Positions 42,301-62,004 of a DNA stretch of 64,000 bases are shown piece after piece. Below the pieces are notes generated by a model that was not told where the DNA came from, searched no databases, and worked only from the letters and a program-made list of their open reading frames with translations. Numbering within the stretch: position 1 is the stretch's first letter; the number at the start of each line of letters is the position of its first letter. The position numbers and the translations under genes are program-made. The stretch is from a virus. Taxonomy: Duplodnaviria > Caudoviricetes. The stretch spans positions 64,001 to 128,000 of IMG/VR virus record IMGVR_UViG_3300035498_000877; one strand, written 5' to 3'.

Positions 42301-42500
42301 GATCTCCTATGACATGTACTGGTCAAAAGATATGTTCTAAATGTGCTGGTAAACTATTCTATATGATAGGAGCTGAACATATTGGATTATTTGCAGTACA
42401 GATTTCACATGCTGATCTTAACTTGGCATTGAAAGCTAAACATGATGCATCAGTAAAACTTCATGTTTTTAATCCTGATGAAATCCTTGAGGATATTTAA
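39319..42500 (+). CDS. Phage RNA polymerase beta' subunit (catalytic); 2 exons (39319-40725, 41097-42500), 936 aa
   Basis: GILSNEIFG, PPAYRD, LLGKSVDYGTRSVI, SRYP; splicing restores GMG|ADYDGD; DCGT, RSPMTC, ICSKCAG. Confidence 0.92.
40726..41096 (+). ncRNA. Group I intron (371 nt) inside the catalytic DxDGD region
   Basis: P1 catgggU|...gctcatg with U.G pair; P10 aatcagt/gctgatt; P aactgccgggaa, Q aatcataggcagc, R gttcagagacta, S aagatatagtcc; terminal G. Confidence 0.92.
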
Positions 42501-42609
42501 TTATATATTATAATAGTAATGATATAGTCGGTATTATAAAAATATCGTCGGGTATACACTATGTCATTAAAAGTTATAACTTTAAATAAAAAGAAGGGAG
42601 CTCTCAAAC

Positions 42610-43389: not shown

Positions 43390-43411
43390 TTATTAAAGGA
43401 GATAAACATCA

Positions 43412-43666
43412 ATGGGAAAGACAGAAAAATTAACAGGTAAGGTTAAATGGTTCAATGAGCAGAAAGGATTTGGATACATCACAGCTGATGATGGAACAGA
43501 TTACTTTGTACATCGTTCAGGGATTAAGAAGGCTCATCCAAAGACAATTGTAGTATCAAATCTTGAAAAAGATGATGTTGTAGAATTTACAATTCAGGAT
43601 GCACCAAAGGGACCACAGGCAGTATCTGTTACAGTAGTAGATGATACTGATGAAGCTACAGAATAA
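43412..43666 (+). CDS. cspA: Cold-shock domain protein
   Basis: GKVKWFNEQKGFGYI, DYFVH, KGPQA. Confidence 0.9.
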   Translation: MGKTEKLTGKVKWFNEQKGFGYITADDGTDYFVHRSGIKKAHPKTIVVSNLEKDDVVEFTIQDAPKGPQAVSVTVVDDTDEATE

Positions 43667-43701
43667 TAATATAAGGGAGGGATACTAATCCCTCTCTTTA
43701 T

Positions 43702-43796
43702 TTTTTACCAATAAATAAAGCTCTATTAGTTATTAAATAACACAAAATAAATACTAGAAAGGAGATATACTATTATGAGCAAGAAGTACTTGGGGG
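43702..43796 (+). repeat. 95-bp inverted repeat, left arm
   Basis: Perfect reverse complement of 45294-45388. Confidence 0.92.
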
Positions 43797-45136
43797 GGGG
43801 TTCATTAAAATCCCTAATACAAACTATATTAACAACATTTCCAACAAGTGAAATTACTGAAGATGAAATAAATGATATGTACTATCCACCAAATGTATAT
43901 GGTTTTAGTATAGATCAAACAGCAACCAACTCAGATAGTGCTATATCATATATTGGGCAGAATGTAAATTATACTGCAGCACAAAAGACAGATGCTTACG
44001 TATTTGATTATGGGGATTGGAAAGATGCATTCTTTATAAAGAATCTTAGACCATGTATGTTGAATTATGATGGTACTGAGGCATATCTATTAGATCCAAA
44101 TGATTATAGTAAGAAATTAGATAGTACTGATTCAGATATAGATAATAGTGATTTTGCTGGAAATGTAATGGTAGGAATACCAAAAGTATATTTTAAGATA
44201 GTTAAAGTGGATGATGATCATATCAATTTTTATTTTTCAGATAAGAAAGTAGATGATAACTATCATTGTTGGGCTCATATAAATAACTATGGTGATGAAG
44301 TACCATATTATTATTTATCAATATATTTTGGGCAACTTATTGATGGAAAAATAAGATCATTTTATAATTCTAATGGACGTGAAACTAATTTTAACTTCGA
44401 TACAGGTATAAATGATTCTGGTATAGTTGATTATTATGAAAAAGGTAACAATATTAAAGATTATGCTATGGCAAATAATATAAATGGTAATAATATTTGG
44501 GGTTTAGAAACATATAGTAGTTGGTTATTAATCACGTTATTGTCTATTTTGATATTTAAGGATTCTGATATATCGGATATATATCGTCCATTTGGTTCAA
44601 CATGCATCTGGGGTAATTATCCAAAACTTATTAATGGATTTTTATTTAATATTCAGAATAGACAATTTCTAGTAAAACTTACATATGGTACTCAAGATGG
44701 TAGTACTGTAGAAGGATATAATTTTGCTGGAGATGGATATATTGAAGGCCCTATATTATCTTCTGCATTTGATCACCAAGATGACTGCAATAATACATAT
44801 TGTACTGCTCATGTTAACACTGACTATGGAGTTGATATAGGAATAACCGGTCGAGTGTCAAAAATGAAATTCACTGAGCAAGGTATTATGTTTCCAGTGG
44901 AAAGTATGCACTTTGAAGATGATACTGCGTATCGTTTTACAATATTTGCAGAATATGGTGATGTGTATGGTGACCCAATTACAGATAGAAATACGTTATA
45001 TTGTCTCGCTAATGGAAATTGCGCACTTAGCAGTAACGAAAAAATACCATATAATATGATATTTATTGGGAGTATATTTACTAATTTTTATTGTAAAACA
45101 TCTTTAATTTGTCTACCAAAAATCCAGACAAAATAA
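43775..45136 (+). CDS. Paralog of the DGR target protein; G9 tract at 43792-43800 (in frame)
   Basis: Shares YIGQN.NYTAA, FFIKNLRPCMLNYDGTEAYLLDPNDY, VKLTYGT.DGSTVEGYNF and terminal CLPK with 3970..5493. Confidence 0.85.
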   Translation: MSKKYLGGGSLKSLIQTILTTFPTSEITEDEINDMYYPPNVYGFSIDQTATNSDSAISYIGQNVNYTAAQKTDAYVFDYGDWKDAFFIKNLRPCMLNYDGTEAYLLDPNDYSKKLDSTDSDIDNSDFAGNVMVGIPKVYFKIVKVDDDHINFYFSDKKVDDNYHCWAHINNYGDEVPYYYLSIYFGQLIDGKIRSFYNSNGRETNFNFDTGINDSGIVDYYEKGNNIKDYAMANNINGNNIWGLETYSSWLLITLLSILIFKDSDISDIYRPFGSTCIWGNYPKLINGFLFNIQNRQFLVKLTYGTQDGSTVEGYNFAGDGYIEGPILSSAFDHQDDCNNTYCTAHVNTDYGVDIGITGRVSKMKFTEQGIMFPVESMHFEDDTAYRFTIFAEYGDVYGDPITDRNTLYCLANGNCALSSNEKIPYNMIFIGSIFTNFYCKTSLICLPKIQTK

Positions 45137-45148
45137 ATAATATAATAT

Positions 45149-45175
45149 TAGAAGAGGGATTTAATCCCTCTTCTA
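45149..45175. terminator. Bidirectional hairpin between the paralog and the VR2 remnant
   Basis: tagaagagggat-tta-atccctcttcta. Confidence 0.7.
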
Positions 45176-45191
45176 TATTTTTATTGATCTA

Positions 45192-45315
45192 TTAACTAAC
45201 TGATTTGGGTAGACATTTAGGAGAGCCGCCGCAGGGCCAGCCCGAGCTAGAAACCACAACACCGAGAACCACGCACAACAAGCCCACACGACGCCCCCAA
45301 GTACTTCTTGCTCAT
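45192..45315 (-). pseudogene. Internally deleted DGR target: MSKKYLG start fused out of frame to a VR copy (VR2, 45216-45296)
   Basis: VR frame reads RVGLLCVVLGVVVSSSGWPCGGSPKCLPKSVS*; 62/75 identity to TR over 45216-45290. Confidence 0.85.
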
Positions 45316-45388
45316 AATAGTATATCTCCTTTCTAGTATTTATTTTGTGTTATTTAATAACTAATAGAGCTTTATTTATTGGTAAAAA
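45294..45388 (-). repeat. 95-bp inverted repeat, right arm
   Basis: Perfect reverse complement of 43702-43796. Confidence 0.92.
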
Positions 45389-45472
45389 TGAACATTTTTT
45401 GGTTATATATTTTTAATTTAAATGACCAACATATTTATCAATTCAATATTAATAAAATTGGAGGAAGTAGAA

Positions 45473-47632
45473 ATGAGTGAATATGAAGTTTATAATTTAC
45501 CAATAATAAGAACTGTTGAAGATTGCGAAAGAGAATTTCCAGATGTGTATATAATATCTAGATTTGACACATATGAAAAATTCGATGATTTTTATTACAA
45601 GATATACTATGCAATATGTGCATGTGCAGAAATTAAAGCATGTCTTAGTTACAAAATCAAATTTAAATTTTATCCAGAAGATGAAATTATCTATGAATTA
45701 TCTATGCCAAAATTATTATTAAATATGAATTCATGGCGTCCATTAATCGAATTAAATACCATTCAAGATCACTATATTAAAAAGATAGAAGTATTAGATG
45801 AATCATATATTGTGGGTACAATGATGTCTAATAAATTACGTGTAGGGTTAGAGTCAAAAGTAATGAATGTATTAAGTGATTATGGTATTACATTTGAAAG
45901 AATATCTGAATTGCTTAAAGAATTGATTGAGAGATATCAACAAGCATCAGTAGAATTTGCATTAAGCTCTAAGGCAGCAATCATGACATATGAAAGTATA
46001 TTCCTCAATGACTATAGAAACTCTGAAAAGATTAGGGAACTAAATAATACTAAGATAAGCCAGGAATTACAGACATCTGAAGTTGAAGAAGTATTAAATA
46101 AGAAAACAGCTGAACTAATCACTGAGATGGGTAAGACAAAGAATCCAATATGGTATGTATCTAAAGCTGGTAATCATATTAAAGAGAAACAGGTACAGGA
46201 ATTATTTATATCTTATGGACAGATACCAAATGTAGATGGTAATGTTATTCCATATACAATGCAGGGAAATGGATTTTCTACTGGATATATTGATCCAGCT
46301 ACATATTATGTTGCAGCTACAGGTGCTCGATTATCTAATATTATGAATAAAGCTCACATGGGTGAAGCTGGATATCTATCACGTAACCTTATATTGGCAT
46401 CTCGTACTATGACATTATCTCATACTGTATTTGATTGCGGAACTAAGCATCTATTGAAACTCCATGTTACTGATAGTGCATTTCTTCATAGATTGGAAAA
46501 CAAATGGATCACAGAAACTCAAGGTGGTAAACTAGAATTATGCCACTATGAAAAACATAAATATCTTATTGGAAAAGATATCTATGTTAGATCACTTGTA
46601 ACATGTGCTGGAGGAAATGAAGTATGCCATATGTGTTATGGTGGCGATGCTAAACTAGTAATGAATATGCCTGGTATGGCTATATTTAATACTGAAGTAT
46701 ATTCAGAACCAGTAGGTCAGAATATCCTATCAACAAAACATCTTCTATATACAGCTGCAAATAAGATTACATTTAGTGATTCATTTAATAAATATTTTAA
46801 GTTCAATGCAGGTGATATTTATCTCAAAGATAAAGATGATTGGGATTTAGATGTTCCATTCGATCAATTATACATTAGAATAGAAGAAGGTAATGTGGTA
46901 TCAGTTAATAATAATGATATGGCTGAATATAATACCTTTGGTAATAATATTGAAAGCCCATTATTTATATATAATAATAGGACTAATGAATATGATAAAA
47001 TAGAGATTATTAATTATGAATCAATGTTTATTGATTCTGAATCTATGAGATCATTTAAATTAGTATTGGATAAGACTAATGGAAAGAAATATTATCAAAT
47101 ATCATTAGTTTCATTATCATCTGATCTTGAAGGAAGATTGATGTCAATTGATATTAAGAATAATGGATTAACTGATAATCTGTATATGATTATGGATCTT
47201 ATCAATAAGAATGCTAGAAAGTATACTGATTATAATCAGTTAGCACAAGACTTCTTTGAGAGTATGATTAAAGCTAATATTAAATGTAGACATGTGCAAG
47301 TAGAAGTCATCTTAAATAGACTGATTAGAGATACTGATAATATCTATAAGAGACCTGACTTTACTAAGTTTGAAAATCCTAAATATCAGATATTAAATCT
47401 AAATCAAGCATTATTAAATACAGATGCACCTACTATTGGATTATCATATCAGGAAGTTAAACGACAAATATTGTCAGATGCATTGTATGAAGATAAGAAT
47501 GGATCTTCATACCTCGATCCATTATACGCAAACAAAGTAAGTACTAAACATCTCAAAGAATTAATTGCTAAAGTAGCAGAAAGAAAGAGGAGAGAAAAGG
47601 ATGAACGAGAACGAAGAGAGCAAGAGGAGTAA
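45473..47632 (+). CDS. Phage RNA polymerase beta' subunit, C-terminal part (second enzyme)
   Basis: GARLS...AGYLSRNL, FDCGT, VRSLVTC...VCHMCYG, SEPVGQNILSTKH, HVQVEVIL; start MSEYEV behind ggagga. Confidence 0.85.
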   Translation: MSEYEVYNLPIIRTVEDCEREFPDVYIISRFDTYEKFDDFYYKIYYAICACAEIKACLSYKIKFKFYPEDEIIYELSMPKLLLNMNSWRPLIELNTIQDHYIKKIEVLDESYIVGTMMSNKLRVGLESKVMNVLSDYGITFERISELLKELIERYQQASVEFALSSKAAIMTYESIFLNDYRNSEKIRELNNTKISQELQTSEVEEVLNKKTAELITEMGKTKNPIWYVSKAGNHIKEKQVQELFISYGQIPNVDGNVIPYTMQGNGFSTGYIDPATYYVAATGARLSNIMNKAHMGEAGYLSRNLILASRTMTLSHTVFDCGTKHLLKLHVTDSAFLHRLENKWITETQGGKLELCHYEKHKYLIGKDIYVRSLVTCAGGNEVCHMCYGGDAKLVMNMPGMAIFNTEVYSEPVGQNILSTKHLLYTAANKITFSDSFNKYFKFNAGDIYLKDKDDWDLDVPFDQLYIRIEEGNVVSVNNNDMAEYNTFGNNIESPLFIYNNRTNEYDKIEIINYESMFIDSESMRSFKLVLDKTNGKKYYQISLVSLSSDLEGRLMSIDIKNNGLTDNLYMIMDLINKNARKYTDYNQLAQDFFESMIKANIKCRHVQVEVILNRLIRDTDNIYKRPDFTKFENPKYQILNLNQALLNTDAPTIGLSYQEVKRQILSDALYEDKNGSSYLDPLYANKVSTKHLKELIAKVAERKRREKDERERREQEE

Positions 47633-49897: not shown

Positions 49898-49937
49898 ATT
49901 AGTTTACTTATTCACCCATAATAAAAGTAGTGAGGAT

Positions 49938-50096
49938 TTATTCCTCACTACTTTTTTCTTTATTTTCTTGAGCTAATTTATTTACTTTTTCTAATACTTC
50001 TGCTTTAATATTCTCAGGAACATCATCAATTGTTCTATATCCTTTGTTTACTAAACTTGTGTAAAAATTAATTAATGCTGTTTGTTTTACTCCCAT
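49938..50096 (-). CDS. CD1375-like small phage protein (52 aa, not in ORF track)
   Basis: FYTSLVNKGYRTIDDVPENIKAEV motif; aaggag SD. Confidence 0.65.
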   Translation of the reverse strand: MGVKQTALINFYTSLVNKGYRTIDDVPENIKAEVLEKVNKLAQENKEKSSEE

Positions 50097-50184: not shown

Positions 50185-51198
50185 ATGAGCAAGTATATTA
50201 AACTTCATACATTATCAGTTGGGTATAATATAGATTTAGGACAACAATTTTTTGATTTATTACATGAATATGATGAGTATATACATTCATATTTTTTCTC
50301 AGTTCATGAAAGATTTTATAACAATCCAAATCAACCTGAATTACAATATGATGATGTTATTGATAACTTAGCATTATTAAATACATATAACTATCCTGCT
50401 AATTTATTGTTCAATAATTATAATAATAAAAATTTTGAAATATATAATCATACTATTGATAAATTACTGAATGTTGGAATTAATATAAAAGCAGTAACTG
50501 TATTAGATCTTGATCTAGCAAAATTAATAAAGACTGATTTTCCACAATTAGAGATACATTCATCTGTTAGATATTTTGATACTTATTTAAGAAATTATAT
50601 GAATCTAACACCAGTTAATTTCATAGATCATATTAATGATTTCATTGGATTAATTGATGTGGTAAATCTATCTGGTACATATAGTATGTTTGATTATGAT
50701 ATTCAAAATAAATGCAGAGAGCTTGGTTTCAAAATTAAGTATATTACAAATGAAGGATGTATTAGAAATAGAGATCTGAATTATTCAAAATTTAAAGGAT
50801 ATGAAAATAATAAATGTTATAACCCTGATAAAGGATGCCAAATTTTATGCACAAATAAATTAGTTAAATCATATCCATGGTTAGAACTAGCAAGAGCTAA
50901 TTTATATAAAGAATCTATTCAATATATTGATTATGATATTCTAAAAATATCTGGTAGGAATATATCAGATATTAATAAAATCAGATCAATGTTGAATTAT
51001 TGGACATCTGATGATGGAACTAATTATATTGCAAACATATCAATGTATAATGATATTAATACATATAATATCTTTAAAGAATACATAAGGGATTCTGCAA
51101 CATGTAATGGGATGTGTAAAGAATGTAGAAAATGTGAGAAATATTATAGTAGGATGATTTTAAGTTCAACCAAATATGAAAATATATATCAAAGATAG
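50185..51198 (+). CDS. Peptidase U32-like Fe-S protein
   Basis: LEIHSSV, TNEGC, LKISGR and C-terminal CNGMCKECRKC. Confidence 0.65.
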   Translation: MSKYIKLHTLSVGYNIDLGQQFFDLLHEYDEYIHSYFFSVHERFYNNPNQPELQYDDVIDNLALLNTYNYPANLLFNNYNNKNFEIYNHTIDKLLNVGINIKAVTVLDLDLAKLIKTDFPQLEIHSSVRYFDTYLRNYMNLTPVNFIDHINDFIGLIDVVNLSGTYSMFDYDIQNKCRELGFKIKYITNEGCIRNRDLNYSKFKGYENNKCYNPDKGCQILCTNKLVKSYPWLELARANLYKESIQYIDYDILKISGRNISDINKIRSMLNYWTSDDGTNYIANISMYNDINTYNIFKEYIRDSATCNGMCKECRKCEKYYSRMILSSTKYENIYQR

Positions 51199-51225
51199 TA
51201 GTGAGTAATTACTCACTACTATCTT
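51192..51225. terminator. Perfect 34-bp palindrome between convergent U32 and rSAM genes
   Basis: aagatagtagtgagtaattactcactactatctt. Confidence 0.75.
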
Positions 51226-51232
51226 CTATAAT

Positions 51233-52351
51233 TTAATTTATTGATGGATCAATTGTGCATTTACCAACTTTAATCCTATGAACATGTTTTGTTTCTTTAT
51301 ATGATTGAATAATATTTGTTTTTGATACTTTATATATGAATTTATTTCTAATAAAATCAAATGTTGATAATATATCTTCTTGAATTGGTCCCAATCTACT
51401 GATAGACGAATGATTACAACCACCTAATCCCATTACTATATTATTTTTAACAATATCGATATTACTATCCATTACTACTTTTGAATTTATAAAGAAATCT
51501 CTATAGCTTCCATTTTTTAGTAAATGATAAGGCTCTTCACCATAATCAATTATGTCTCCAATATTAAGTGATAGAGATGAATCTTTTTCTAAAGAATATT
51601 CATCAGTACTTAACACAATATCTTTTAATAATTCTCTAAACTTAATTGATTTTAGATAATATTTATCAACTCTAAAATTAGGAATGGAACATATTTCATC
51701 AGGTTTTAATTCATTAATGCATTTATTCATATCATCAACATAAATATCCCATCCCATATCATTATCATAATTAAATAATGCAACTATATCAATATTTGCA
51801 TATCTATCATTTTCATGGAAAATATCAATAGCTTTCTTCAATTTATCAATATCATAGGGTATTCTATTTTGTTGTTTATTTGATTTTAAATCAAATGACT
51901 GAATACCAATACTCAATCGCTTAATATCCATATCATTAATTAAAAATGATAAAAATTCATCGGTTAAATCAATAGGATGAACTTCGAATGATATATTAGT
52001 CGTATTATGATATCCAGGAATATTATTTATTATTTCAATCAAAGCATCTTTATTCCATAATGATGGAGTACCTCCACCAAAATAAATTTGATCCATTTTA
52101 ACAGGAAATACATCTTTCATATTCTGAACTAAAGATACTACACTATCTTCATATATTTTTATTTTATCTTTATATTCATAATATTTGTTACTGCCAAATG
52201 CACAGAATTTACATATTGATCTGCAAAATGGAAAATCTATATATAATTCAAATTTGGTATCATCAGTTATTGGATATTCATTGAAATATCGTTTCCAATA
52301 TTCTATAAATTCACCATCATTATGTAAATAATAAGGATAATCTTTATTCAT
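51233..52351 (-). CDS. HemN-like (class C) radical SAM enzyme
   Basis: LYIDFPFCRSICKFC, IYFGGGTPS, RLSIGIQSF. Confidence 0.85.
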   Translation of the reverse strand: MNKDYPYYLHNDGEFIEYWKRYFNEYPITDDTKFELYIDFPFCRSICKFCAFGSNKYYEYKDKIKIYEDSVVSLVQNMKDVFPVKMDQIYFGGGTPSLWNKDALIEIINNIPGYHNTTNISFEVHPIDLTDEFLSFLINDMDIKRLSIGIQSFDLKSNKQQNRIPYDIDKLKKAIDIFHENDRYANIDIVALFNYDNDMGWDIYVDDMNKCINELKPDEICSIPNFRVDKYYLKSIKFRELLKDIVLSTDEYSLEKDSSLSLNIGDIIDYGEEPYHLLKNGSYRDFFINSKVVMDSNIDIVKNNIVMGLGGCNHSSISRLGPIQEDILSTFDFIRNKFIYKVSKTNIIQSYKETKHVHRIKVGKCTIDPSIN

Positions 52352-52354
52352 AAT

Positions 52355-53164
52355 TTATTCCTTTCTTACCATATTTGCAAACTCTTTTGGATATGAGCAA
52401 TATTTTTGTAATCTACATGGTCTGCATCTATTTATCATAGAACATTCATAACATTCTTTCGGAACATAAATTTGTAAACCATGTGGGCATGAATTCTTTA
52501 ATGATCCATCTGGGTATAACGTGTATATATTAGTACAATCATAACACCAGTTATTTATTCTATCAGCAATTTCTAACTCAATATTTGATTGCCATTTATT
52601 ATATAAATTACATAGCCATTGATCAGCCGATTTATAATATGATGGATCATTTTCTTCACCAACATAATGTTCAAATTTAATACACTTAACTCCCTTAATA
52701 TTCCATGTATCAACAAGTGATATAAATTCATCTATATTCATATTAAATAAATCTTTAGTTAATGTAATCATTATAGTATGAGATATTCCATTATCTGATA
52801 TAATCTTTCGATTTTTCATCCAGATATCATATTCTTTATCATTAAATCTTTTAGAATTCCAAGATGTTGATATACCATCGAATGTTTTATATATTTCTAT
52901 TAATCTATCATTTAGAATAAGTAAATTGGTTGATATACCATTTATCTTACTGATGCCATTAATATTATTAGATTCAATTATTTCATATAATCTATCAAGA
53001 TGTGTTGTAGCTTCTCCTCCAAAGATTGTTATTTGTCCATCAAATTTATTTAATTCATATAGGAATTTATCTTTATCATAAAATTCATCTCTATCTTTAG
53101 CAAAACAATGTGGACAATTTAAATTGCAGTGCCACGTGGGCACTGCATATAAATGTTTGTACAT
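52355..53164 (-). CDS. Radical SAM/SPASM-like protein
   Basis: CNLNCPHC, FGGE, C-terminal CYEC...CRPC. Confidence 0.85.
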   Translation of the reverse strand: MYKHLYAVPTWHCNLNCPHCFAKDRDEFYDKDKFLYELNKFDGQITIFGGEATTHLDRLYEIIESNNINGISKINGISTNLLILNDRLIEIYKTFDGISTSWNSKRFNDKEYDIWMKNRKIISDNGISHTIMITLTKDLFNMNIDEFISLVDTWNIKGVKCIKFEHYVGEENDPSYYKSADQWLCNLYNKWQSNIELEIADRINNWCYDCTNIYTLYPDGSLKNSCPHGLQIYVPKECYECSMINRCRPCRLQKYCSYPKEFANMVRKE

Positions 53165-53165
53165 G

Positions 53166-54146
53166 TTAAATCTCCTTTACCCATCCATATTTAATTAGCT
53201 TTGGTTTTAATTTAAGCATTTCCTCACAATGTTCTGGTGGATAATGTTTTTTCTGTGATTGACATCCATTGCATAATGCAAACAATTCACATGATGCACA
53301 TTTTTCATTGACATGATATGCAACTGGTGGATATTGTGGCACTGGTATTAAATTATTATCATTCTTATAATCTTTCAATATCTCAGGTTGTTCTTCACAG
53401 CATCCATAATAATGAAGCTTATCATCTGTATCAACATAGCAGCATCTAATTGATGATTTACATAACATGTTGATATTCAAATTACATGCATTGAAATTAT
53501 ATTTACTTGTATATATTTCATAATCACCTAATCCAGCATCTAATATTTCCATGTATTTAATAAACATCTTATATCTTGGATATGTGACTGTACATCTACC
53601 TTGTTCTGTCGCATTATTTATTCTAACTTTAGTATTTAATCTTTTTGCCAATTCAACTGTTTTTATTACAGTATCTTCATTACTCTCATCTATTACAGCA
53701 ATAAATGGTAATGTTTTATCTGAATTTATTTTTTCTCGAAATAAATTGAATATTTCAATAAACTTATCTTCAGTAAATGGAGTATCTTTATCCCATCTTC
53801 TACTTTCTCCATAATTAAAAGATGTTGTTATTCCAACATTATCATCATTGAATAGGTCAACCCATTTATCTGGATGATAATAGAATTCTTTAAGATTAGT
53901 TGTGATTGACATTGTTCCTTTTGGTGATTGTTCATGCATAATATCCAACAATTCCCAATAATAATCTGGATCGACTAATAATGGCTCTCCTCCACTCACA
54001 ACAATAGAATTTGGTTTTATTGTTCTAATTACATCTTTTATTTGTTCTGGAACACCGTTTGTTGGATGTTTAATATATAATGATCCAGCGCTACAAAATG
54101 TGCAATCAAAATTACATAAACCAGTTACTCTGATGATTAAATCCAT
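53166..54146 (-). CDS. Radical SAM/SPASM protein
   Basis: CNFDCTFC, SGGEPLL, CASCELFALCNGC. Confidence 0.88.
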   Translation of the reverse strand: MDLIIRVTGLCNFDCTFCSAGSLYIKHPTNGVPEQIKDVIRTIKPNSIVVSGGEPLLVDPDYYWELLDIMHEQSPKGTMSITTNLKEFYYHPDKWVDLFNDDNVGITTSFNYGESRRWDKDTPFTEDKFIEIFNLFREKINSDKTLPFIAVIDESNEDTVIKTVELAKRLNTKVRINNATEQGRCTVTYPRYKMFIKYMEILDAGLGDYEIYTSKYNFNACNLNINMLCKSSIRCCYVDTDDKLHYYGCCEEQPEILKDYKNDNNLIPVPQYPPVAYHVNEKCASCELFALCNGCQSQKKHYPPEHCEEMLKLKPKLIKYGWVKEI

Positions 54147-55259
54147 TTATTTAACCTCCGAATTATCAGATGTATTTATATCTTCTTCATATGGCTCGCC
54201 AACCTTGGCAATGGTCACAAATTCGTCATGATTAATTTCTTCATAACTTTTAGTGAGATCAGATATAGTAGTTCCAGTTTGATATGCATAAAATTCTGGT
54301 TGTAATATAATATTCAGTATATCAGCTGATTGATATAATTGCTTATTTCCCAATAAATCAATAATTTTATTTGATAATGATGACTCATTTGAAAAATAAA
54401 TATTGACTGGAATATATGGAATTTTTAGCATCTTAGCTATCAATATTGTAATCATTGTATCATCTTCTGGTGATGATAGAACTCCACCATTCAATCTCAT
54501 GAATAATGGGTTTTGAATTCCATTGGTTGCTATATCTATTATTTTAGCCTCAAATTCTTCTTGGGTATATGGTCCGAATGAGTATTCTTTGGTATCAATA
54601 TCTTGTGTATAAATTCCATATGGAAGTGGTTGTATTTTATATATTTCATATGGAATATTAGTACTCAAAATTGTTATTGGATCAATATATGAATCGAAGT
54701 ATTCATTATATACAAAATTAGAATTATTAAACATTGTATATTTCAATATATTTGGTAATGCAATATTGAAATTGCATGGAGTTACCTTCAATTTAGTATG
54801 ATCTAGAAAATGATCCTGTTTCTGATGGTATCCTACTATCTTACTTCGTAACATTTCATTGCGTAGATCAATTTTGAATAAACTATCAGCATCATATACA
54901 TTTACTAAAATATCTTTATTATTATTTTTTGCCCATGATAGATAATACATCAATGGAAGATATCTTTCATAATTTCCATAATATTCTGATATACCATAAC
55001 CATTAGTAATATCAGAAAAATCATAATCATTCATGTATACTGAATCAGCATCCAATAACTTATTATATTCATCAATATCATTTTTTACAAACCATGAATT
55101 TTCATCTTTGGATAATTGATCCATTTCATCAAGCGTAAGTGATATTATTTGACGTGATTTCAAATGTTGTGTTGTTTGATCTAATCGATCAATCATATAT
55201 AACTTTTTATCTAAATCAGGGGATTTATATGAATTGAGTTTCTCAGCAATTGTCTTCAT
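54147..55259 (-). CDS. Hypothetical protein of the rSAM operon (possible degenerate ParB/Srx-like segment)
   Basis: 370-aa ORF coupled on both sides; IATNGIQNPL...AKMLKIPYIPV. Confidence 0.55.
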   Translation of the reverse strand: MKTIAEKLNSYKSPDLDKKLYMIDRLDQTTQHLKSRQIISLTLDEMDQLSKDENSWFVKNDIDEYNKLLDADSVYMNDYDFSDITNGYGISEYYGNYERYLPLMYYLSWAKNNNKDILVNVYDADSLFKIDLRNEMLRSKIVGYHQKQDHFLDHTKLKVTPCNFNIALPNILKYTMFNNSNFVYNEYFDSYIDPITILSTNIPYEIYKIQPLPYGIYTQDIDTKEYSFGPYTQEEFEAKIIDIATNGIQNPLFMRLNGGVLSSPEDDTMITILIAKMLKIPYIPVNIYFSNESSLSNKIIDLLGNKQLYQSADILNIILQPEFYAYQTGTTISDLTKSYEEINHDEFVTIAKVGEPYEEDINTSDNSEVK

Positions 55260-55980
55260 TTACTTGTACCTCACTTTCTTGACTCACAATTTTCACAAAT
55301 TCAGTTATAGCATCCTTCTGAACTTCTTGTGGTGCAAATAATAATGATAGAATATTATAGAATGGCAAATTCTCAATTATTCTATGCAAATAATACTGAT
55401 TATCTTTATCATTAAATAAACTGAAATATCCTGGCTCTTGGCCTTCTATTGATTTATCATATTCAGTCAATAATAATGAAAATGTATTATATCCTGCCAA
55501 GTAATATATATTAACTATTTTTATTTCATCATCCTCAATAAATGGAACATTACTCATATCAATATAATCACCATTCGTATTATATGTTTCCATTGAATAA
55601 TAAGGTAATGAATTTATAAGCCTTCTTACTTTATTAATGAAAGATTTATTATTATTAATGAATTTAATAATTTCATCTTTGGTTAATATACTATCAAGAT
55701 ATATATTATCATCTATATAAAATGTAAGTATATTTGTCCATGTATCTGAGAATATCTTAAAGCTGATCTCAATATCAGTAGATAAATATAGTTTAAGATA
55801 TTCTTCTTTATCTTCATATGAGCAATTATCAAAATTTAATTTTGGATTTGTTCCAATATTTCTTAAAAATGTTAATGCATATTTTTTCTTTTTTTCTTCA
55901 GGAACATCAAAATTCAAATTGCTCATATCGACTTCATCATCTATTGTCGGTACCTCATTAGGGATAATTACACATTTCAT
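55243..55980 (-). CDS. Hypothetical protein of the rSAM operon
   Basis: 245-aa ORF overlapping the next gene. Confidence 0.6.
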   Translation of the reverse strand: MKCVIIPNEVPTIDDEVDMSNLNFDVPEEKKKKYALTFLRNIGTNPKLNFDNCSYEDKEEYLKLYLSTDIEISFKIFSDTWTNILTFYIDDNIYLDSILTKDEIIKFINNNKSFINKVRRLINSLPYYSMETYNTNGDYIDMSNVPFIEDDEIKIVNIYYLAGYNTFSLLLTEYDKSIEGQEPGYFSLFNDKDNQYYLHRIIENLPFYNILSLLFAPQEVQKDAITEFVKIVSQESEVQVNEDNC

Positions 55981-56011
55981 ATTTTATACAACCTTCTTTT
56001 ATTTTTATTTA

Positions 56012-56620
56012 TTACTTATAGCAACCATTATTACTATGGCAATTATGATGGCAATCAGAATGACACACTGAATGGCATATTATTATTTCTTTACTTGCTT
56101 GATGGTAACCACTATTAGCCCAAGCTGTATTTAATGCTGTATACAGATCATTCATTTTGGAAATACTCATTATATCATTTGCTTTGATTTTCCCATTTGT
56201 ATATGAAGAATTTAATGTTTTTATATATGAATCCGCAAATAATGCTCGTCCACTAGCTGAAGTCATTGTACTATATGAATGTGATCCATTTCTTGAAGAA
56301 TGATATAATCTTGTATATCTCCATGTTCCAACTCTTGTCAACATATGTGTACATTCAACCAAAAATGAGAGCATTCTTGCAGCATCAGGTTTTCCTTCAT
56401 GTACACCACTACTCTCCAAATAATTTTGAATCTGTTTTCTAAATATTGTCACATTTCCAAGTGCTTCATCTATCTCTTTATATTCAGTAGAACCATATGT
56501 ATCTACTGGCAAATTTGTGCTATGGATTAATGATGATGTAGTAATAACATCATAAACATTTGTCCAAAAACCATTTATAACATCATTATGCACTATTTTT
56601 TCCTTTGTTGCTAATGCCAT
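56012..56620 (-). CDS. Putative rSAM substrate: protein with C-terminal CHxx repeats
   Basis: Ends ICHSVCHSDCHHNCHSNNGCYK; first gene of the rSAM operon. Confidence 0.65.
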   Translation of the reverse strand: MALATKEKIVHNDVINGFWTNVYDVITTSSLIHSTNLPVDTYGSTEYKEIDEALGNVTIFRKQIQNYLESSGVHEGKPDAARMLSFLVECTHMLTRVGTWRYTRLYHSSRNGSHSYSTMTSASGRALFADSYIKTLNSSYTNGKIKANDIMSISKMNDLYTALNTAWANSGYHQASKEIIICHSVCHSDCHHNCHSNNGCYK

Positions 56621-56653
56621 AATTACCAAATCCTTTCATTTTTTTTATTTTAA

Positions 56654-56706: not shown

Positions 56707-57216
56707 TCAACCCCAACCAGCTCTACATCTATACCATGTAGGTTGGCTATCACCTGACAGTTTGGCATATACTTTTATACAACATTCTTCGCTTGAACTC
56801 GTATCAATCCATATTTCACCTTTGTCTACAAGTGGTGCTGATGGAGCAGATGATGCTATTGTAACTCTTACACCGTTTACTCTAGCTGAGTTTCCACCAT
56901 TTGCGGTCATTGAAGTTGGATAATCGTTTAAATCATAAAAGCTACCTGTATTAGCCACTTTATGAAGACCAGTAATCATTGTATATGGATGGGTAGCAGG
57001 ATGTGGATTATTAAGTGCACCGGTTTCTATTCCAGCTAATTTAGTTTTTTCTGCATTTGTATAATCATTAATACTAAATCCAGCTTCTGTACCATTACCA
57101 AGTTTATGATTATTAGTGCCACCTGCACCAATATGGTTGGTTAGGTCAACAATATTTTTATTCCATTTAGCTCTTTCAGCTGCACTAATATGCTCTCTAA
57201 TATCTGAATTAGCCAT
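56707..57216 (-). CDS. Short tail-fibre-associated protein
   Basis: HISAAERAKWN, NDYTNAEKTKLAGIE, LHKVANTGSFYDLND, APSAP...GEIWIDT fibre-type motifs. Confidence 0.65.
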   Translation of the reverse strand: MANSDIREHISAAERAKWNKNIVDLTNHIGAGGTNNHKLGNGTEAGFSINDYTNAEKTKLAGIETGALNNPHPATHPYTMITGLHKVANTGSFYDLNDYPTSMTANGGNSARVNGVRVTIASSAPSAPLVDKGEIWIDTSSSEECCIKVYAKLSGDSQPTWYRCRAGWG

Positions 57217-57222
57217 AGTTTA

Positions 57223-60200
57223 TCATCCTTTCTTTTTCAAATTTCTTAATGGGCTTACTGATAGCATATTTCTGAATTTTTCAATAAATTTATCAGCTCC
57301 AGTTCCAGCAATCTGTATACCAACATCATATGCATTGCCTCTATCATATTGAGATAGAGTTAACCCATTACCTTCTATTTTATCAACTGCGTCAGAAGAT
57401 ACAGTTACAGTTGCGGTATATGAAGATGTATCAAGCATAAATGAACGCATATTTGCATCTCCCGATATTGAATCTGGTATAGTAATATCCTGATTGAATG
57501 ATGAGCATTTCCATAAGAAATGATCAAGACATTGCCGTCCAGATACTCCTGGATGTATTATAGTACTACCTTCAGTCTTCTTATCTGGAATTGTTAATGG
57601 TTTATTAAATGACGTACATCCATGCAAGAATTTCATCAAACATTTATCTCCAGTTACACCACTAGGTATTGTAAGATCTTGATTAAATGACGTACATCCA
57701 TCCAGAAATCCTTCCAAGCAACGTTCTCCAGTTACACCGCTAGGTATGGTAATTGCTTGGTTGTATGATGTGCATCCTTTTAAGAATCCTTCAAGACAGC
57801 GTGCACCAGTTACACCGCTAGGTATTGTCAATGACTGATTGAATGATGTACAGCCAGCCAAGAAGTTTCTAAGAGAACCTCCTCCAGATACAGAGTCTGG
57901 TATTCTGTCAATAGATGTTAAACTTGTAAAGTTTCTTGCAAAGTTAGCTAATGATGTAATACTATATGTTTCCGGATTATCAATTTCTTTTTCTTCATAT
58001 TCATCTGGATCACCTGGATTAACTTTGTCTTTCAGTTTTTTCTCTATAACCTTTGAGCTCCAGAATGATATTTTAGTTACCTGATTCTTAGTAAATGATG
58101 ATCCACCTGCTGTTATAGTAGTATTTGCTGGTAAATTATTACTTAAATTGTATATTTCTTCTTCATTAAAAATGGATACAGTATTATTGTTGCTAAGAGT
58201 CAATTTTAAAACTTCATATTTATGAGTTGAAGGAGCATAAAAGTTAATATTAAAGTCTTGCGTATAACTTTCTCCAGTATGCTTATAATATTTATGCTCA
58301 TCCTTAGAAACTTTGTTGTATGCAGAGCCATCCCATTTATAATATTTATTATTAACATTGGATGCCAGTATATTATTATATATTTTATTAGAATCTGGAG
58401 TTATTTCATCTTTATATGCCGAATTATCAGAATCATATGATGAATAAAATGTACCTTTATACAAATATCCATTCTCAACATCTTTATCAAATTTTCCAGT
58501 TGCATACCATGTGTATTCTTCTTTTGTTCCATTTGCAACAGTAGCTCGAATTTTACATGTTCCAGCTGCAGTTGCTGTCAATACTCCATTACTAATTGAA
58601 GCATTTGTTGATCCTTTATCAACTATTGACCATGATACATCTGAATAGCTAGGAATTTCAGTATCATATGTTTGAGTATCCCTAGCAACAACTGATAAAT
58701 TAGTTTCACATTCAGGGCCTAGTACCATTCTAACATTAGTTGGGAATGATGAAGGTATATTAATAATATCTGCTACTGGAATATATTCTGGAAGGAATGT
58801 TACAGTTCTAAATGTCTCATAATTAACATAACTAGTCTCTCCGGCATCATTTACTTGCTGAATTGCTGATGCTGATTGGGTGACTTCATAAAAATCTCCA
58901 TCTTCAAAATTATAGAAGTAATCATAAGAATCTTTACTTCCCTCAGGAGCTTTATAATCCCAATCATATTCAGAATCCATTGTAACATTATAAGTTTCTT
59001 TCCATGTTGCCGCATCTTGTGTATAAGGCAAAAATTGTAATCCCATTCCACCAGTGGCATTTAATAAACCATTATCTGGATCTCTATTATTATCATTTAT
59101 ATTCCTAGAATATGAAATTATTATACCACCATCACCAGTTGATGCATTCCATGGATCTTTCTCTGCCATAGATAATATTATTGGTCTCTTAGCTCTAATG
59201 ATAGAAGGATATTCCAACTTAACATTTTCAAGATTAATATGTGCCGATGGAGCATCAGGAAATATTAATACAATTTCTACCTTAAATTCAGCATCACTTT
59301 TATTTGCACCGCCACCTTTAACAGTTGCTTTCAATTCTACAGTTTTATCATCAAATGCTTCTATATAAAAACTATCCTGAGTATCATCTTCACTACTAGA
59401 GTTAACATAATCAGGATTTTCTTCCCACCATGTTACAGAATCAGCTGCGATTGAAAGTGTTTTAGTATTTTTATCAAATGTAACATTGGCAGGAGTAGGA
59501 TTAACTAATTCCCATTCAATTGTTTTGACAGATGCAGTAGATGGTGAAACTGTTGCACTAGCTAATGAAAGTGGCTCTGATACTTTATCCCATGTACTAG
59601 GAACACCTGATATACCCTCAGCAACAATAAATGCACCATTGACACTAATTGAAAATTCTTTAGTAAAATCTTCTCCTATTGCTTTACCATTTTTTACAGT
59701 AGCTGTAATTTTTGCTACACCACTTTTAGTAGCAGTAAATATTCCATCATCATACAAAATAGCATCAGTTGATCCTTTACTCGTAATAGCAGCTGTTACA
59801 TTTGTATATGATGGATAATTGGTAACTGATGTATCCCATGATGCCACAAATTTAAGTCTACAAAATTCTCCTGAATTATATGAACCATTATATCCAGTCA
59901 TAATAATATCATTTATTGGATAATATTTATTTATTACCTGTATATCAAATACTTCTACATAGTCATATATAATTTTCGTATATGTATTTTTCTCTGCTGA
60001 ATACATGTATCTATCAGATGATGTGGCATCAATATAAATCTTATACTCTTCACCAGCAATTTCTGTTGTATAACTAGCATCTCTATAAAATTTATTACTG
60101 CTAGATACAAAGTACCCATTAACAGTCTCATATGCAGATCCCTCATTAGGTCTTAAACCATTCTTGATGGTTGCTTGTACTCTTAAATATCCAATATTGC

Positions 60201-62004
60201 TAGCTCTTAATACCTTTGATCCATTTCCTGATGCAGTTAATTTTGCTGATGTAGAAAATACATTATTATTATATAATAATTCCCAGATAATTTCTTTCTT
60301 CTCAGCATTGCTAGGTTTAACTGTTCCTGATAAAATATAATCAGTATCTGTTTCAATTACAGTTGGAACATTTTCAATACCAGTGACTCTAACATATTGC
60401 TTTATATCAATATTAAGAGTATCACTAAAGATTTCCCCATTAACAGGTGCTGTTTTTGCGACTATAGTTGATCCAGTAATATCTTTATCAATATGGATAT
60501 ATCCATGATTATCACGACTGAAATTTCCGCTACTATCTTTTGCTGAAGCAACTGGGTAATCATCTAATGCAACTATTAATGTACCTTTTTCATCCAAACG
60601 ACATAATTGATCATCAGTCTTAAGGTACCATGTTATTGATGGTAAGTCTGCATCGGTTGGAATTGGATTTGCAGTTAATTGGTATTTATTTGTTATTTCA
60701 TACACTGACGTTGATGAAGTAATTTTAATACCAGTTAATTTTGGTTTTACGATAACCTGTGAAATGCTTGTATAAACATCATTTGCACCGGGGCTAGATA
60801 ATTTACAGAAATAGTAGTAAGTTCCAGATGTTGTTGATTGAGGAATCACGTATGTCGAATTTGTTTCTCCCTCAAGCAATGTAGCACCGTTAGTACTATT
60901 AATGCTATTTCTATACCATTGATAATATATAACATCACTTGTTGATTTAGCGACAACTGATAATTGTTGATTTATATTATCAAGAGTAATATATGAATAT
61001 GATGATGGATTGGTAACAATTGTTATTACATTCTTTTTAGCAGTAATTGTAAAATCTTGTGTAAAATTAGATTTAACATTATTTGATCCATTGACTGCAT
61101 TATTCAAAGTAGCTCTAATTTTAATTGTACCTGCAGTATTTGTTAAAATTATATTATCATTGATAGCGGCAGTACCTGATACTACCGACCATATTATTGA
61201 TGATACTGAAGCATTATATGGAACCACCTGTGCCCCTGATAAATTATATGGAACTCCTGTTAATATTTCTGCAGGAACATCAATTATCTTTGTTACAGAT
61301 ACAAATGGTACATCATCGATATAATTCAAACGAAAATAAGCATTTTGACTCATATATACTAATATACATGGAGAATTTGCTGGATAAGATGAATTCATAT
61401 CAAATAATACTACAGCACAATCTAAATTAGTTTTTACAACTTGGGGATTCGATAGTTTGATTATAGTTCCATCACCCATTTGTACACCCCAATGTGATGA
61501 ATCCCGAGATATATAAAATTCAATATTGGGAGCTTGAGGGGGATATGAAAATGTTGCTAATAATTTATCAGTATTACCATTTTCATCAGTAGTAGCTCCA
61601 TAGTTATTAGTTGTGAATGCGAAATTTCCTGATGCATGCTGTTTAAAAGTAACCTGCTGATCATCCTGATATGAAATCTTAAATCTAGCAGTATCACTTC
61701 TATATACTAATAAACACGGAGAATTAGATGGGTATGATTTACTCATATCAAACTGAACAATCGCACTATCTCTATTAAGATATAAAAGTACGGGGTTTGA
61801 AAGGGGGATGATAGAACCATCCCCCATTTGTGCACCCCAGTCATTATTATCAGTACTAATATGAAAATTTATATCAGATGGCTGATGGGGAAATCCAATC
61901 GAAAACATGCATTTACTAACTTGACCATTAGTATCAGATAATCCACCAGATATGCCATCAATAGTAAATCCACAATATCCAGTTTGTTTATTAATGACTG
62001 CCAT
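57223..62004 (-). CDS. Large adhesin-like tail protein: Ig-like domains plus C-terminal 26-aa LRR-like (BspA/DUF285-like) repeats
   Basis: V.P.NA....I.W Ig motifs, YQWY..YYFC Ig, repeats of FLxGCTSFNQxLTIPSGVTGxxCL. Confidence 0.75.
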   Translation of the reverse strand: MAVINKQTGYCGFTIDGISGGLSDTNGQVSKCMFSIGFPHQPSDINFHISTDNNDWGAQMGDGSIIPLSNPVLLYLNRDSAIVQFDMSKSYPSNSPCLLVYRSDTARFKISYQDDQQVTFKQHASGNFAFTTNNYGATTDENGNTDKLLATFSYPPQAPNIEFYISRDSSHWGVQMGDGTIIKLSNPQVVKTNLDCAVVLFDMNSSYPANSPCILVYMSQNAYFRLNYIDDVPFVSVTKIIDVPAEILTGVPYNLSGAQVVPYNASVSSIIWSVVSGTAAINDNIILTNTAGTIKIRATLNNAVNGSNNVKSNFTQDFTITAKKNVITIVTNPSSYSYITLDNINQQLSVVAKSTSDVIYYQWYRNSINSTNGATLLEGETNSTYVIPQSTTSGTYYYFCKLSSPGANDVYTSISQVIVKPKLTGIKITSSTSVYEITNKYQLTANPIPTDADLPSITWYLKTDDQLCRLDEKGTLIVALDDYPVASAKDSSGNFSRDNHGYIHIDKDITGSTIVAKTAPVNGEIFSDTLNIDIKQYVRVTGIENVPTVIETDTDYILSGTVKPSNAEKKEIIWELLYNNNVFSTSAKLTASGNGSKVLRASNIGYLRVQATIKNGLRPNEGSAYETVNGYFVSSSNKFYRDASYTTEIAGEEYKIYIDATSSDRYMYSAEKNTYTKIIYDYVEVFDIQVINKYYPINDIIMTGYNGSYNSGEFCRLKFVASWDTSVTNYPSYTNVTAAITSKGSTDAILYDDGIFTATKSGVAKITATVKNGKAIGEDFTKEFSISVNGAFIVAEGISGVPSTWDKVSEPLSLASATVSPSTASVKTIEWELVNPTPANVTFDKNTKTLSIAADSVTWWEENPDYVNSSSEDDTQDSFYIEAFDDKTVELKATVKGGGANKSDAEFKVEIVLIFPDAPSAHINLENVKLEYPSIIRAKRPIILSMAEKDPWNASTGDGGIIISYSRNINDNNRDPDNGLLNATGGMGLQFLPYTQDAATWKETYNVTMDSEYDWDYKAPEGSKDSYDYFYNFEDGDFYEVTQSASAIQQVNDAGETSYVNYETFRTVTFLPEYIPVADIINIPSSFPTNVRMVLGPECETNLSVVARDTQTYDTEIPSYSDVSWSIVDKGSTNASISNGVLTATAAGTCKIRATVANGTKEEYTWYATGKFDKDVENGYLYKGTFYSSYDSDNSAYKDEITPDSNKIYNNILASNVNNKYYKWDGSAYNKVSKDEHKYYKHTGESYTQDFNINFYAPSTHKYEVLKLTLSNNNTVSIFNEEEIYNLSNNLPANTTITAGGSSFTKNQVTKISFWSSKVIEKKLKDKVNPGDPDEYEEKEIDNPETYSITSLANFARNFTSLTSIDRIPDSVSGGGSLRNFLAGCTSFNQSLTIPSGVTGARCLEGFLKGCTSYNQAITIPSGVTGERCLEGFLDGCTSFNQDLTIPSGVTGDKCLMKFLHGCTSFNKPLTIPDKKTEGSTIIHPGVSGRQCLDHFLWKCSSFNQDITIPDSISGDANMRSFMLDTSSYTATVTVSSDAVDKIEGNGLTLSQYDRGNAYDVGIQIAGTGADKFIEKFRNMLSVSPLRNLKKKG
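57430..57900 (-). repeat. Tandem ~78-bp (26-aa) coding repeats
   Basis: ccagttacacc(g/a)ctaggtat recurs at 78-bp spacing; about 6 units at protein level. Confidence 0.8.

Follow-up and report, generated by a model that had tools for sequence, protein, structure and literature searches.

What do three radical S-adenosylmethionine (SAM) genes do directly behind the tail-fibre genes of a phage, and what is the role of the protein at their head, whose C-terminus is a regular array of cysteines and histidines? The question is raised by a 64,000-nucleotide stretch of DNA (the window), positions 64,001 to 128,000 of the virus record IMGVR_UViG_3300035498_000877 (289,234 bp, 29.8% G+C, CheckV completeness 100%). 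On the minus strand, a Cys-His-tailed protein of 202 amino acids (aa; 56012-56620) is followed by a 245-aa all-helical protein (55243-55980), a 370-aa protein (54147-55259), two radical-SAM/SPASM enzymes, A (326 aa; 53166-54146) and B (269 aa; 52355-53164), and, as the last gene of the operon, a HemN-like, class-C-like radical-SAM enzyme (372 aa; 51233-52351). A U32-like Fe-S protein (337 aa; 50185-51198, plus strand) converges on this run as a separate unit. A preliminary description had listed the same genes, all of which are present, and had proposed a pathway akin to those for peptides that are both ribosomally synthesized and modified post-translationally (RiPPs) that would modify the Cys/His tail. 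The analysis presented here makes it probable that the cluster is a phage-encoded protein-maturation cassette acting on the C-terminal tail of a folded protein; judged from sequence, modification of the tail by the cassette enzymes is strongly implied. Gene linkage, the architecture of fold and tail, and a virion homologue uphold the earlier proposal in this general form, while the thioether is reduced to one possibility among at least three fitting chemistries. The system fits best as a variant form of protein maturation by radical-SAM enzymes.

The proposed substrate appears to consist of two very different parts. Its start was set at the ATG used by homologues; a TTG start at 56629 would give 205 aa. 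The C-terminus reads ICHSVCHSDCHHNCHSNNGCYK, within which the pattern C-HSV-C-HSD-C-HHN-C-HSNNG-C-YK comprises four C-H-x-x units and a terminal CYK. Back-translated, the (Cys-His-x-x)x3-Cys-His pattern occurs once in the window and in none of 100 dinucleotide-preserving shuffles, so the four-unit pattern singled out earlier is not a product of chance. The underlying DNA contains only a weak 12-bp repeat and its codons are varied, which indicates that conservation acts at the protein level. AlphaFold2, supplied with a 28-sequence alignment, predicts a confident alpha/beta body at residues 11-182, with a mean predicted local distance difference test score (pLDDT) of 85 and a predicted template modelling score (pTM) of 0.79, and a disordered tail from residue 188 onward (188-202, pLDDT below 50). 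The model thereby agrees with the earlier view of a Cys/His tail carried by a folded protein, not by a short peptide. No usable fold match to the body was returned (best Foldseek E-value, E, 0.46; best VIA Z 5.0).

A word-index protein search with the tailed protein retrieved only itself, and the family emerged from an exhaustive HMMER search, which yielded 44 representative clusters when E was limited to 1e-3; in 18 of these, E was 1e-10 or lower. A 2975-aa hit, P0023, was discounted as unrelated, its match being limited to a repeated helical motif at the N-terminus. The 44 representatives carry between one and twelve units each, 189 period-4 units altogether. Counting from the cysteine, the +1 position is His in 176 units and Tyr in 8, the +2 position is mostly Ser, Thr, Asn, or Asp, and the +3 position is Ser, Asn, or Asp in 81%. 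Substitutions of the histidine are found in the relatives L124, some of whose units have Tyr, and L127, where Phe occurs once (related loci carry L numbers here). Two kinds of ending go with two kinds of unit: in the 11 CYK-ended representatives, 28 of 35 units carry Asp or Asn at +3, and in those ending in RGRR, 13 of 18 have Ser there. In the sublineage of the window, the units take the form C-H-[S/T]-[D/N], at times with Tyr in place of His. The RGRR-ended members are included in the 44 clusters, so that the window protein belongs to one family with them. Across this family, body identity falls to about 20-25% or becomes undetectable and the tails are far better conserved, so that the conserved element would be the tail, not the body. 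In the 290-kb relative L002, the same C-H-x-x-C-H-C-A-R-W ending is found on two different bodies (6977-7906, minus strand; 9930-10760, plus strand), one of them a paralogue of two fibre-like proteins encoded nearby, which suggests that the tail acts as a portable module.

A second cysteine-periodic protein is encoded elsewhere in the genome, at 157545-160529 on the plus strand (window coordinate 93545-96529, outside the window). It is 994 aa long, and its middle ~410 residues, with a Cys at nearly every fourth position, hold about 68 Cys-to-Cys spacings of exactly 4, the period of the Cys-His tail. The whole genome has just five radical-SAM genes: the three in the cluster, one for an NrdG-like activase, and one for a 746-aa protein. 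Given so small a number, the cassette enzymes might act on the 994-aa protein too.

The two core enzymes have the features of maturases that work on peptides or proteins. Enzyme A (E 4.7e-14) and the HemN-like enzyme score above the Pfam Radical_SAM cut-off; enzyme B (E 2.5e-6) reaches 28.2 bits against a cut-off of 29.5, and attains 29.8 bits only when neighbouring matches in frame are summed. Both families combine a CX3CX2C core with seven invariant C-terminal cysteines, including a CX2CX5CX2-3C array, and this bears out their description as two radical-SAM/SPASM-type enzymes; such a cysteine arrangement would accommodate two auxiliary clusters. The SPASM model TIGR04085 is matched by three of the seven enzyme B family members, and neither enzyme has a recognition (RRE) domain ahead of the radical-SAM core. 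Searched against the Protein Data Bank (PDB), the enzyme A family profile gives a full-length match to the anaerobic sulfatase maturase 4k37 (E 4.9e-8). Neither family reaches the cut-off of any NCBIfam model, and the recurrent weak matches of both are all to peptide or protein maturases. Below threshold, window enzyme A matches HxsC, DynA, and AmcB, and its family matches DynA (7/8 members), HxsC (6/8), and the sulfatase maturase TIGR03942 (4/8). The enzyme B family does so with PapB and YhhB (4/7 each) and with the sulfatase maturase, FxsB, AmcB, and HxsB (3/7 each). They belong to the enzyme class whose members cross-link or oxidise peptide and protein side chains.

How firmly are these enzymes tied to the tail? 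In the window, the genes from the 245-aa gene onward are separated by -17, 0, 1, and 3 bp, and it is for this part of the run that the earlier phrase "tightly coupled" holds. Beyond the window, a conserved core emerges that consists of the C-H-x-x-tailed protein, the helical 245-aa protein, and the two SPASM-type radical-SAM enzymes. It recurs in about 11 metagenomic relatives, in isolated jumbo phages of Ralstonia, Pseudomonas, and Agrobacterium, and in Bdellovibrionota genomes. All four components occur together in the window, L001, L106, L211, L206, and L212. L001, whose enzyme A counterpart is 51% identical, keeps the gene order of the window and encodes a 265-aa protein whose CHTN-CHSD-CHSN tail runs on into a longer extension rich in Cys. 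In L002 (enzyme A, 33% identity), the enzyme A counterpart adjoins a second radical-SAM gene and then a 276-aa protein ending in C-H-x-x units, an ending shared by a nearby fibre-like paralogue; a 257-aa gene there was assigned to the 245-aa family by alignment alone (23% identity), and further radical-SAM genes match enzyme B weakly. The 231-kb contig L106 was recovered independently, by a blind scan for the back-translated motif, and carries, after the gene for a 257-aa tailed protein, a member of the 245-aa family, the two core enzymes, and five additional radical-SAM genes. The other matches of that scan in viral contigs were mostly simple DNA repeats in junk frames; only L001 and L106 were real.

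A search with the 245-aa protein added four closer relatives, among them L124, L126, and L127. The order in L124 and L126 is fibre gene, 160-aa protein, tailed protein, and 245-family gene, and both contigs end before the enzymes. L127, in which only the end of the tailed gene is present at the contig edge, goes on to a 414-aa gene, then the two enzymes and a gene of the HemN-like type. The phage collection gave no match to the whole cluster in blastn or to the tailed protein in tblastn. Among isolated phages, full-length tblastn matches of enzyme A at 29-35% identity were obtained in the Ralstonia phages RSF1 and RSL2 and their relatives, the Burkholderia phages FLC6, FLC8, and S13, the Pseudomonas phage pPa_SNUABM_DT01 (DT01), the Agrobacterium phage Atu_ph07, and the Sinorhizobium phage Phosso. 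In RSF1, DT01, and Atu_ph07, the tailed protein and both enzyme families are found together: a protein ending in (C-H-x-S)x3 plus R-G/S-R-R directly follows a radical-SAM gene, and this gene is the BLAST counterpart of enzyme B. The co-occurrence that the preliminary description had proposed to look for was thus found, the tail gene and two SPASM radical-SAM genes being linked in every phage relative examined, apart from the two contigs that end too early. Bacterial genomes show a similar association. Enzyme A homologues of 30-37% identity are present in many Bdellovibrionota assemblies, some on megabase contigs, and 21 of the 42 genome-collection loci (about 19 of these titled Bdellovibrionota) encode a tail protein no more than 6 kb away from the enzyme A homologue, nearly always with the canonical R-x-R-R ending. 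An isolate of the gut anaerobe Dysosmobacter segnis (BX15; L140) has an enzyme A homologue (34%) and a partial C-H-x-S protein on a 4.3-kb contig that may derive from a phage and hints at the host range.

The 245-aa protein (phrog_20767) would be a dedicated helper. Its homologues occur in L001, L106, L124-L127, L206, L211, L212, and Atu_ph07, where gp169 is the match and adjoins the tailed protein gp170. The model is all-helical (pLDDT 76), with no fold match (best Z 3.7). The neighbouring 370-aa protein is an accessory in part of the sublineage, with a BLAST homologue in L001 only (28% identity) and the 414-aa gene in its position in L127. A ParB_N-like identity for it was dropped, being a weak Atlas lead only, with scores under 0.9 and a poor model.

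What might the enzymes do to the tail? In the mechanism proposed here, the 202-aa protein would be synthesised with a folded body and, at its C-terminus, a flexible tail built of C-[H/Y]-x-[D/N] units, on which the two SPASM enzymes would carry out 5'-deoxyadenosyl radical chemistry, most likely closing one small covalent ring per unit. One option is a three-residue cyclophane, in which the His or Tyr ring would be bonded to the beta-carbon located two residues further along. Cyclophane synthases obey an aromatic-x-x rule and act on His (PMC11499958), and the succession of His or Tyr and, two residues on, Asp, Asn, or Ser fits this rule. The other option is a thioether from the Cys sulfur to the Asp or Asn three positions on. 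The tail resembles in this respect the substrates of PapB, which have periodic Cys plus Asp. The two geometries fit about equally and, with two enzymes at hand, both rings may occur. The finished, rigid tail would then be carried by a protein that is probably incorporated into the virion close to the tail fibres.

Each option has its characterised counterpart. The three-residue cyclophane (triceptide) synthases XyeB, GrrM, FxsB, HaaB, and HtkB (PMC11499958) are likewise SPASM radical-SAM enzymes, use His or Tyr donors, and join an aromatic residue to an acceptor two positions on. The repeat feature of their substrates is present in the units counted above (at +1, 176 of the 189 have His and 8 have Tyr; Ser, Asn, or Asp follows two residues further on in 81%), and among the enzyme A and B families the AmcB, YhhB, FxsB, GrrM, and XyeB models find sub-threshold matches only. 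Their known substrates, however, are short leader-core peptides with no Cys ahead of the aromatic residue, unlike the tail of a predicted folded 202-aa protein. PapB, the freyrasin enzyme, and the ranthipeptide and sactipeptide maturases share with the window system periodic Cys with an acidic or amide acceptor at a fixed distance, and one ring per repeat. The PapB model NF047865 is matched below its cut-off by four of the seven enzyme B family members (best E 8.9e-14), though window enzyme B has no match at E 0.001. The window differs from PapB in its C-x2-D/N spacing (C-x3-D in PapB), in the His next to each Cys, and in having no RRE domain. PapB is also treated in PMC12373016. A whole Cys-rich protein can be the substrate of such enzymes, as illustrated by CrpC, which installs thioethers on the protein CrpA (PMC13692751).

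Maturation of entire proteins by radical-SAM enzymes is a known phenomenon. Sulfatases are whole proteins matured in this way. The earlier statement that no characterised example exists does not stand, since both CrpA (PMC13692751) and HxsA (PMC13128918) have been characterised. The closest characterised analogue in logic is indeed the bacterial HXS system (HxsA-D; TIGR03976-03979; Li et al., Nat Commun 2026, PMC13128918), in which the radical-SAM pair HxsB/HxsC is required to mature HxsA, modified at the HxS motif. There, as apparently here, paired radical-SAM enzymes and a helper mature a full-length protein with short His-containing repeats, and the canonical phage tails (C-H-x-S) even contain H-x-S. 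Among the differences, the window cassette is phage-borne, lies in a late fibre operon, and has extra HemN-like and U32-like genes; its repeats are C-terminal, always preceded by Cys, and read H-x-D/N instead of H-x-S; and the phage homologue is a virion component, in contrast to the periplasmic defence effector of the HxsA system. TIGR03977 (HxsC) scores 34 bits on enzyme A against a cut-off of 267.9, over residues 6-89 only. TIGR03978 (HxsB) gives no match to window enzyme B at E 0.01, and its matches to three of the seven family members are below threshold (best E 4.2e-8). The HxsD and HxsA models match none of the eight cluster proteins, and H-x-S is absent from the window tail units HSV, HSD, HHN, and HSN. 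On each of these comparisons the window cassette appears to lie outside the HXS family.

A system related by descent is the (CHxS)3-RGRR cassette of jumbo phages (RSF1 ORF069-085, pPa_SNUABM_DT01, Atu_ph07 gp165-171), which has the same tailed family, homologous core enzymes, and a position near fibre genes. It has six or more radical-SAM genes, compared with three in the window, and encodes cupin and 2-oxoglutarate (2OG) oxygenases, in place of which the window has U32-like and HemN-like genes. Tail units of the CYK type end in D or N, not S (28 of 35 units against 13 of 18), the terminal motif is CYK, not RGRR, and the G+C content is about 30%. This jumbo-phage cassette is widespread, and the window cluster is a divergent and oxygen-free version of it, pared to two core enzymes, which points to the minimal chemistry.

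Is the tailed protein part of the particle? The published proteome of Atu_ph07 provides a link. Its gp170, a hypothetical protein of 31.89 kDa, was detected in purified virions with 8 unique peptides and 35% coverage (PMC6102473 Table S5), in gel slices 1-9 and most abundantly in slice 1 (PMC6102473). The translated tailed protein (L123 5983-6873) has exactly the mass in that table, and two neighbouring genes also fit the numbering. The cassette radical-SAM proteins gp165, gp168, and gp171, as well as gp169, are not among the proteins listed in Table S5 of PMC6102473. Since the sample buffer as described contained no reductant (PMC6102473), the top-slice position of gp170, far higher than its mass would give, can be explained by disulfides as well as by other covalent links, and oligomers of either kind are possible. 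The "possibly virion" label given earlier is substantiated for this distant homologue by mass spectrometry; the presence of the window protein in virions may be inferred from its family membership and its place in the fibre operon.

The accessory genes have a more complicated record. The HemN-like enzyme matches the HemN, HutW, and HemW models at E 1e-17 to 4e-20, at about 72 bits against cut-offs of 205-504, and aligns with Escherichia coli HemN (PDB 1olt; E 1.3e-9) over the radical-SAM core alone. Its motif CRSICKFCAF has no counterpart of the fourth Cys of HemN (CX3CX2CXC). The label therefore stands as far as the core alignment and the model matches go, but the cut-offs are missed and the fourth Cys is absent. 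The label U32-like fares similarly. In its favour are an Atlas feature score of 0.95 against a viral cluster, 28% of whose members have PF01136, and a structural template modelling (TM) score of about 0.6 (0.58-0.60) to TrhP/U32 models; a radical-SAM-type barrel scores 0.73, and the match to PF01136 stays below the Pfam cut-off. Seven of the 27 family members match PF01136, all below cut-off (best E 0.0036). The family has eight invariant cysteines (192, 211, 218, and 222, and then 307, 311, 314, and 317), and its profile matched no solved structure among the PDB sequences. In the Atlas, the fold also matches viral proteins of 416-548 aa (TM 0.73-0.74 by query), and one such cluster has Methyltransf_24 in 69% of its members, so that the fold also occurs fused to methyltransferases in phages.

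Do these two genes belong to the cassette? A bidirectional terminator hairpin with a 15-16 bp stem (51191-51226) lies between the convergent units and a second terminator-like hairpin (49923-49955) lies upstream of the U32-like gene, which is thus bracketed by two hairpins. In addition, neither gene was found in five other cassette-bearing phage genomes. The first view was accordingly that both are unrelated neighbours, and it has been partly overturned. In L206, the order is enzyme A, U32-like gene, enzyme B, and 245-family gene, with a shared stop/start base; in L210, enzyme A is flanked by two U32-like paralogues; in L212, the U32-like gene leads the enzyme operon; and in L211, two U32-like paralogues converge on the operon end, as in the window. 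Its place inside or directly beside the enzyme operon in these four makes the U32-like gene a recurrent member of the cassette in the low-G+C sublineage and justifies its earlier inclusion in the cluster. The view of a mere neighbour is weakened for the HemN-like gene as well, which recurs in L127 at the same operon position (53% identity).

Both enzymes would provide tailoring specific to this sublineage, probably the addition of a C1 unit and an oxygen-independent hydroxylation; that the HemN-like enzyme methylates and the U32-like protein hydroxylates is a guess drawn from their families. In phages with aerobic hosts, the cassettes have cupin and 2OG-Fe(II) oxygenase genes in place of the U32-like and HemN-like genes, and the latter would replace those oxygenases in the window. 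No match to 2OG-FeII_Oxy_5 was found anywhere in the genome, which is rated 100% complete. We infer an oxidative tailoring step that may be common to both types of cassette and that would be carried out here by an oxygen-independent enzyme. UbiU and UbiV are U32 family proteins of anaerobic ubiquinone synthesis, and the window variant suggests a comparable replacement of oxygen-dependent hydroxylases by a U32-like protein.

Several other explanations deserve comparison with a modified tail. Cysteine and histidine, the two near-invariant positions of the tail, are classic metal ligands, and T4 fibres contain His-x-His iron sites. The tail could accordingly be an unmodified site for Zn, Fe, Cu, or Fe-S, perhaps spanning the subunits of an oligomer, while the enzymes act elsewhere, for example on a small molecule or on the 994-aa Cxxx-repeat protein, which shares the genome with just five radical-SAM genes and could be what they serve. 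This is unlikely, though far from negligible. Phe, which in L127 once takes the place of His, is no metal ligand, and Tyr does so in L124; the strict Ser, Asn, or Asp at +3 is needless for a metal and fits cross-link acceptors; and the linkage of tail and two enzymes holds in bacteria and in phages whose tails have three to eighteen units. The His replacements and the +3 residues together favour a cross-linking role over pure metal binding, and do not separate the possible reactions. Among these is one that makes no ring. Anaerobic sulfatase maturase (anSME; PDB 4k36-4k39; TIGR03942) is a minimal SPASM enzyme that modifies a protein and is the best full-length solved-structure match of the enzyme A family; its model is also matched, as given above, by half of that family and by three of the seven enzyme B members. 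If the cassette enzymes worked alike, tail Cys (or Ser) would become formylglycine, and the aldehydes could lock the protein onto virion or receptor via amines. The 32-kDa gp170 peak in the top gel slice fits a covalent high-mass species of this kind, and disulfides explain it equally well. The target signature of sulfatases, C/S-x-P/A-x-R, is however not found in the tail, the scores lie far below the family cut-off, anSME modifies one residue per protein in a different motif and not a repeat array, and the invariant His is left without a role. On balance, formylglycine formation is rather improbable.

The two remaining explanations assign the cluster to other functions altogether. An HXS-like effector system carried by the phage would yield a non-structural protein of the host envelope, serving for instance in superinfection exclusion. 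HXS has the same logic of two radical-SAM enzymes, helper, and repeat protein and blocks phage DNA entry (PMC13128918), and the sub-threshold HxsC and HxsB matches (6/8 and 3/7 members) point in the same direction. Such an effector is nonetheless quite doubtful: neither an HxsD match nor a peptidoglycan-binding domain was detected, every score is far below the HXS model cut-offs, every relative within this sublineage has the gene in its late fibre operon, and the Atu_ph07 homologue is found in virions. Finally, the radical-SAM, HemN-like, and U32-like enzymes might modify nucleic acid, by DNA hypermodification or by hydroxylation or methylation of tRNA or rRNA, with the tailed protein unrelated to them. 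U32 proteins do hydroxylate tRNA and rRNA, and the Atlas joins the U32-like fold to a methyltransferase domain in viral proteins. Phage radical-SAM enzymes take part in thymidine hypermodification (PMC8989533). A role in nucleic-acid modification nevertheless seems very improbable indeed, as no kinase, glycosylase-fold transferase, or other hypermodification gene occurs in the operon of any relative, both core enzymes have full SPASM-type Cys sets that match peptide or protein maturases, and the tight linkage to the tailed protein would be left unexplained.

Against maturation of the tail by the cassette enzymes stand several findings, to which the motif itself contributes, since an unmodified metal-binding tail alone would suffice to explain it. 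The enzymes lie so far below the cut-off of every named family that their chemistry appears unreadable from homology. In the other half of the 42 genome-collection loci, no tail gene was found in the 6-kb flanks, which may reflect flank length. The virion protein gp170 has little in common with the window protein beyond the tail and a weak similarity of the body, and the window protein matches representatives with the canonical RGRR-type tail at E about 1e-5. As for the accessory genes, the U32-like protein scores 15.3 bits on PF01136 (cut-off 22.4), and L208 has a solitary U32-like copy away from any cassette, the only such case.

A wider generalisation may be considered with these points in mind: large phages would finish a virion- or fibre-associated protein by forming SPASM-catalysed rings at each Cys-His/Tyr-x-Asp/Asn unit, with an oxidation that iron- and oxygen-dependent enzymes carry out in the phages of aerobes and a U32-like Fe-S protein in those of anaerobes. 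This is a tentative proposition, its chances somewhat short of even. If true, it would provide the first radical-SAM-matured structural element of a virus particle and a new substrate class for cross-linking radical-SAM enzymes, namely protein tails with Cys-aromatic repeats. Modification of the tail would in itself mean that RiPP-type radical chemistry is applied by viruses to proteins of their own particles, and the families of cyclophane and thioether enzymes would gain a new repeat substrate. It would also explain what many radical-SAM genes of jumbo phages are for, genes merely listed in RSF1-like, Burkholderia, and Agrobacterium genome papers. A literature search found no functional study or description of the cassette, which is present in genome papers on RSF1-like Burkholderia phages merely as gene lists (PMC8066314, PMC11898562). 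Several of the relatives are cultured phages with published virion proteomes, which makes the idea directly testable.

The genomic setting agrees with the position claimed earlier, directly behind three fibre or adhesin genes. Upstream of the tailed-protein gene, all on the minus strand, lie the first gene of the fibre block, for a 627-aa tail-fibre protein (62020-63903; Pfam Phage_fiber_rpt E 1.8e-15; tail-fibre PHROGs), a giant fibre/adhesin-like protein of 1593 aa (57223-62004), and a 169-aa fibre-module protein (56707-57216) with weak tail-fibre PHROG matches. The giant protein has no Pfam match of its own and is classified by its same-position homologues in L001, L124, L126, L206, and L212, some of which have weak or faint Big_2 matches. 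Homologues of the 169-aa protein in L001, L206, L211, and L212 are 52-60% identical, and a gene of this type always lies directly ahead of the tailed-protein gene in this sublineage. Further along, at 35958-47632, several genes match PHROGs for split multisubunit RNA-polymerase beta subunits and are interleaved with fibre-like genes, and a GroEL-like chaperonin gene is located at 25360-27225. These PHROG and chaperonin matches indicate that the genome is that of a jumbo phage. The 746-aa radical-SAM protein is encoded at 5564-7804 on the minus strand, with the radical-SAM domain at its C-terminus (phrog_1802, E 3.8e-50). Its 1083-aa homologue in L001 (12441-15692, minus strand) is 64% identical over the C-terminal part and has extra inserted segments that are intein-like in look.

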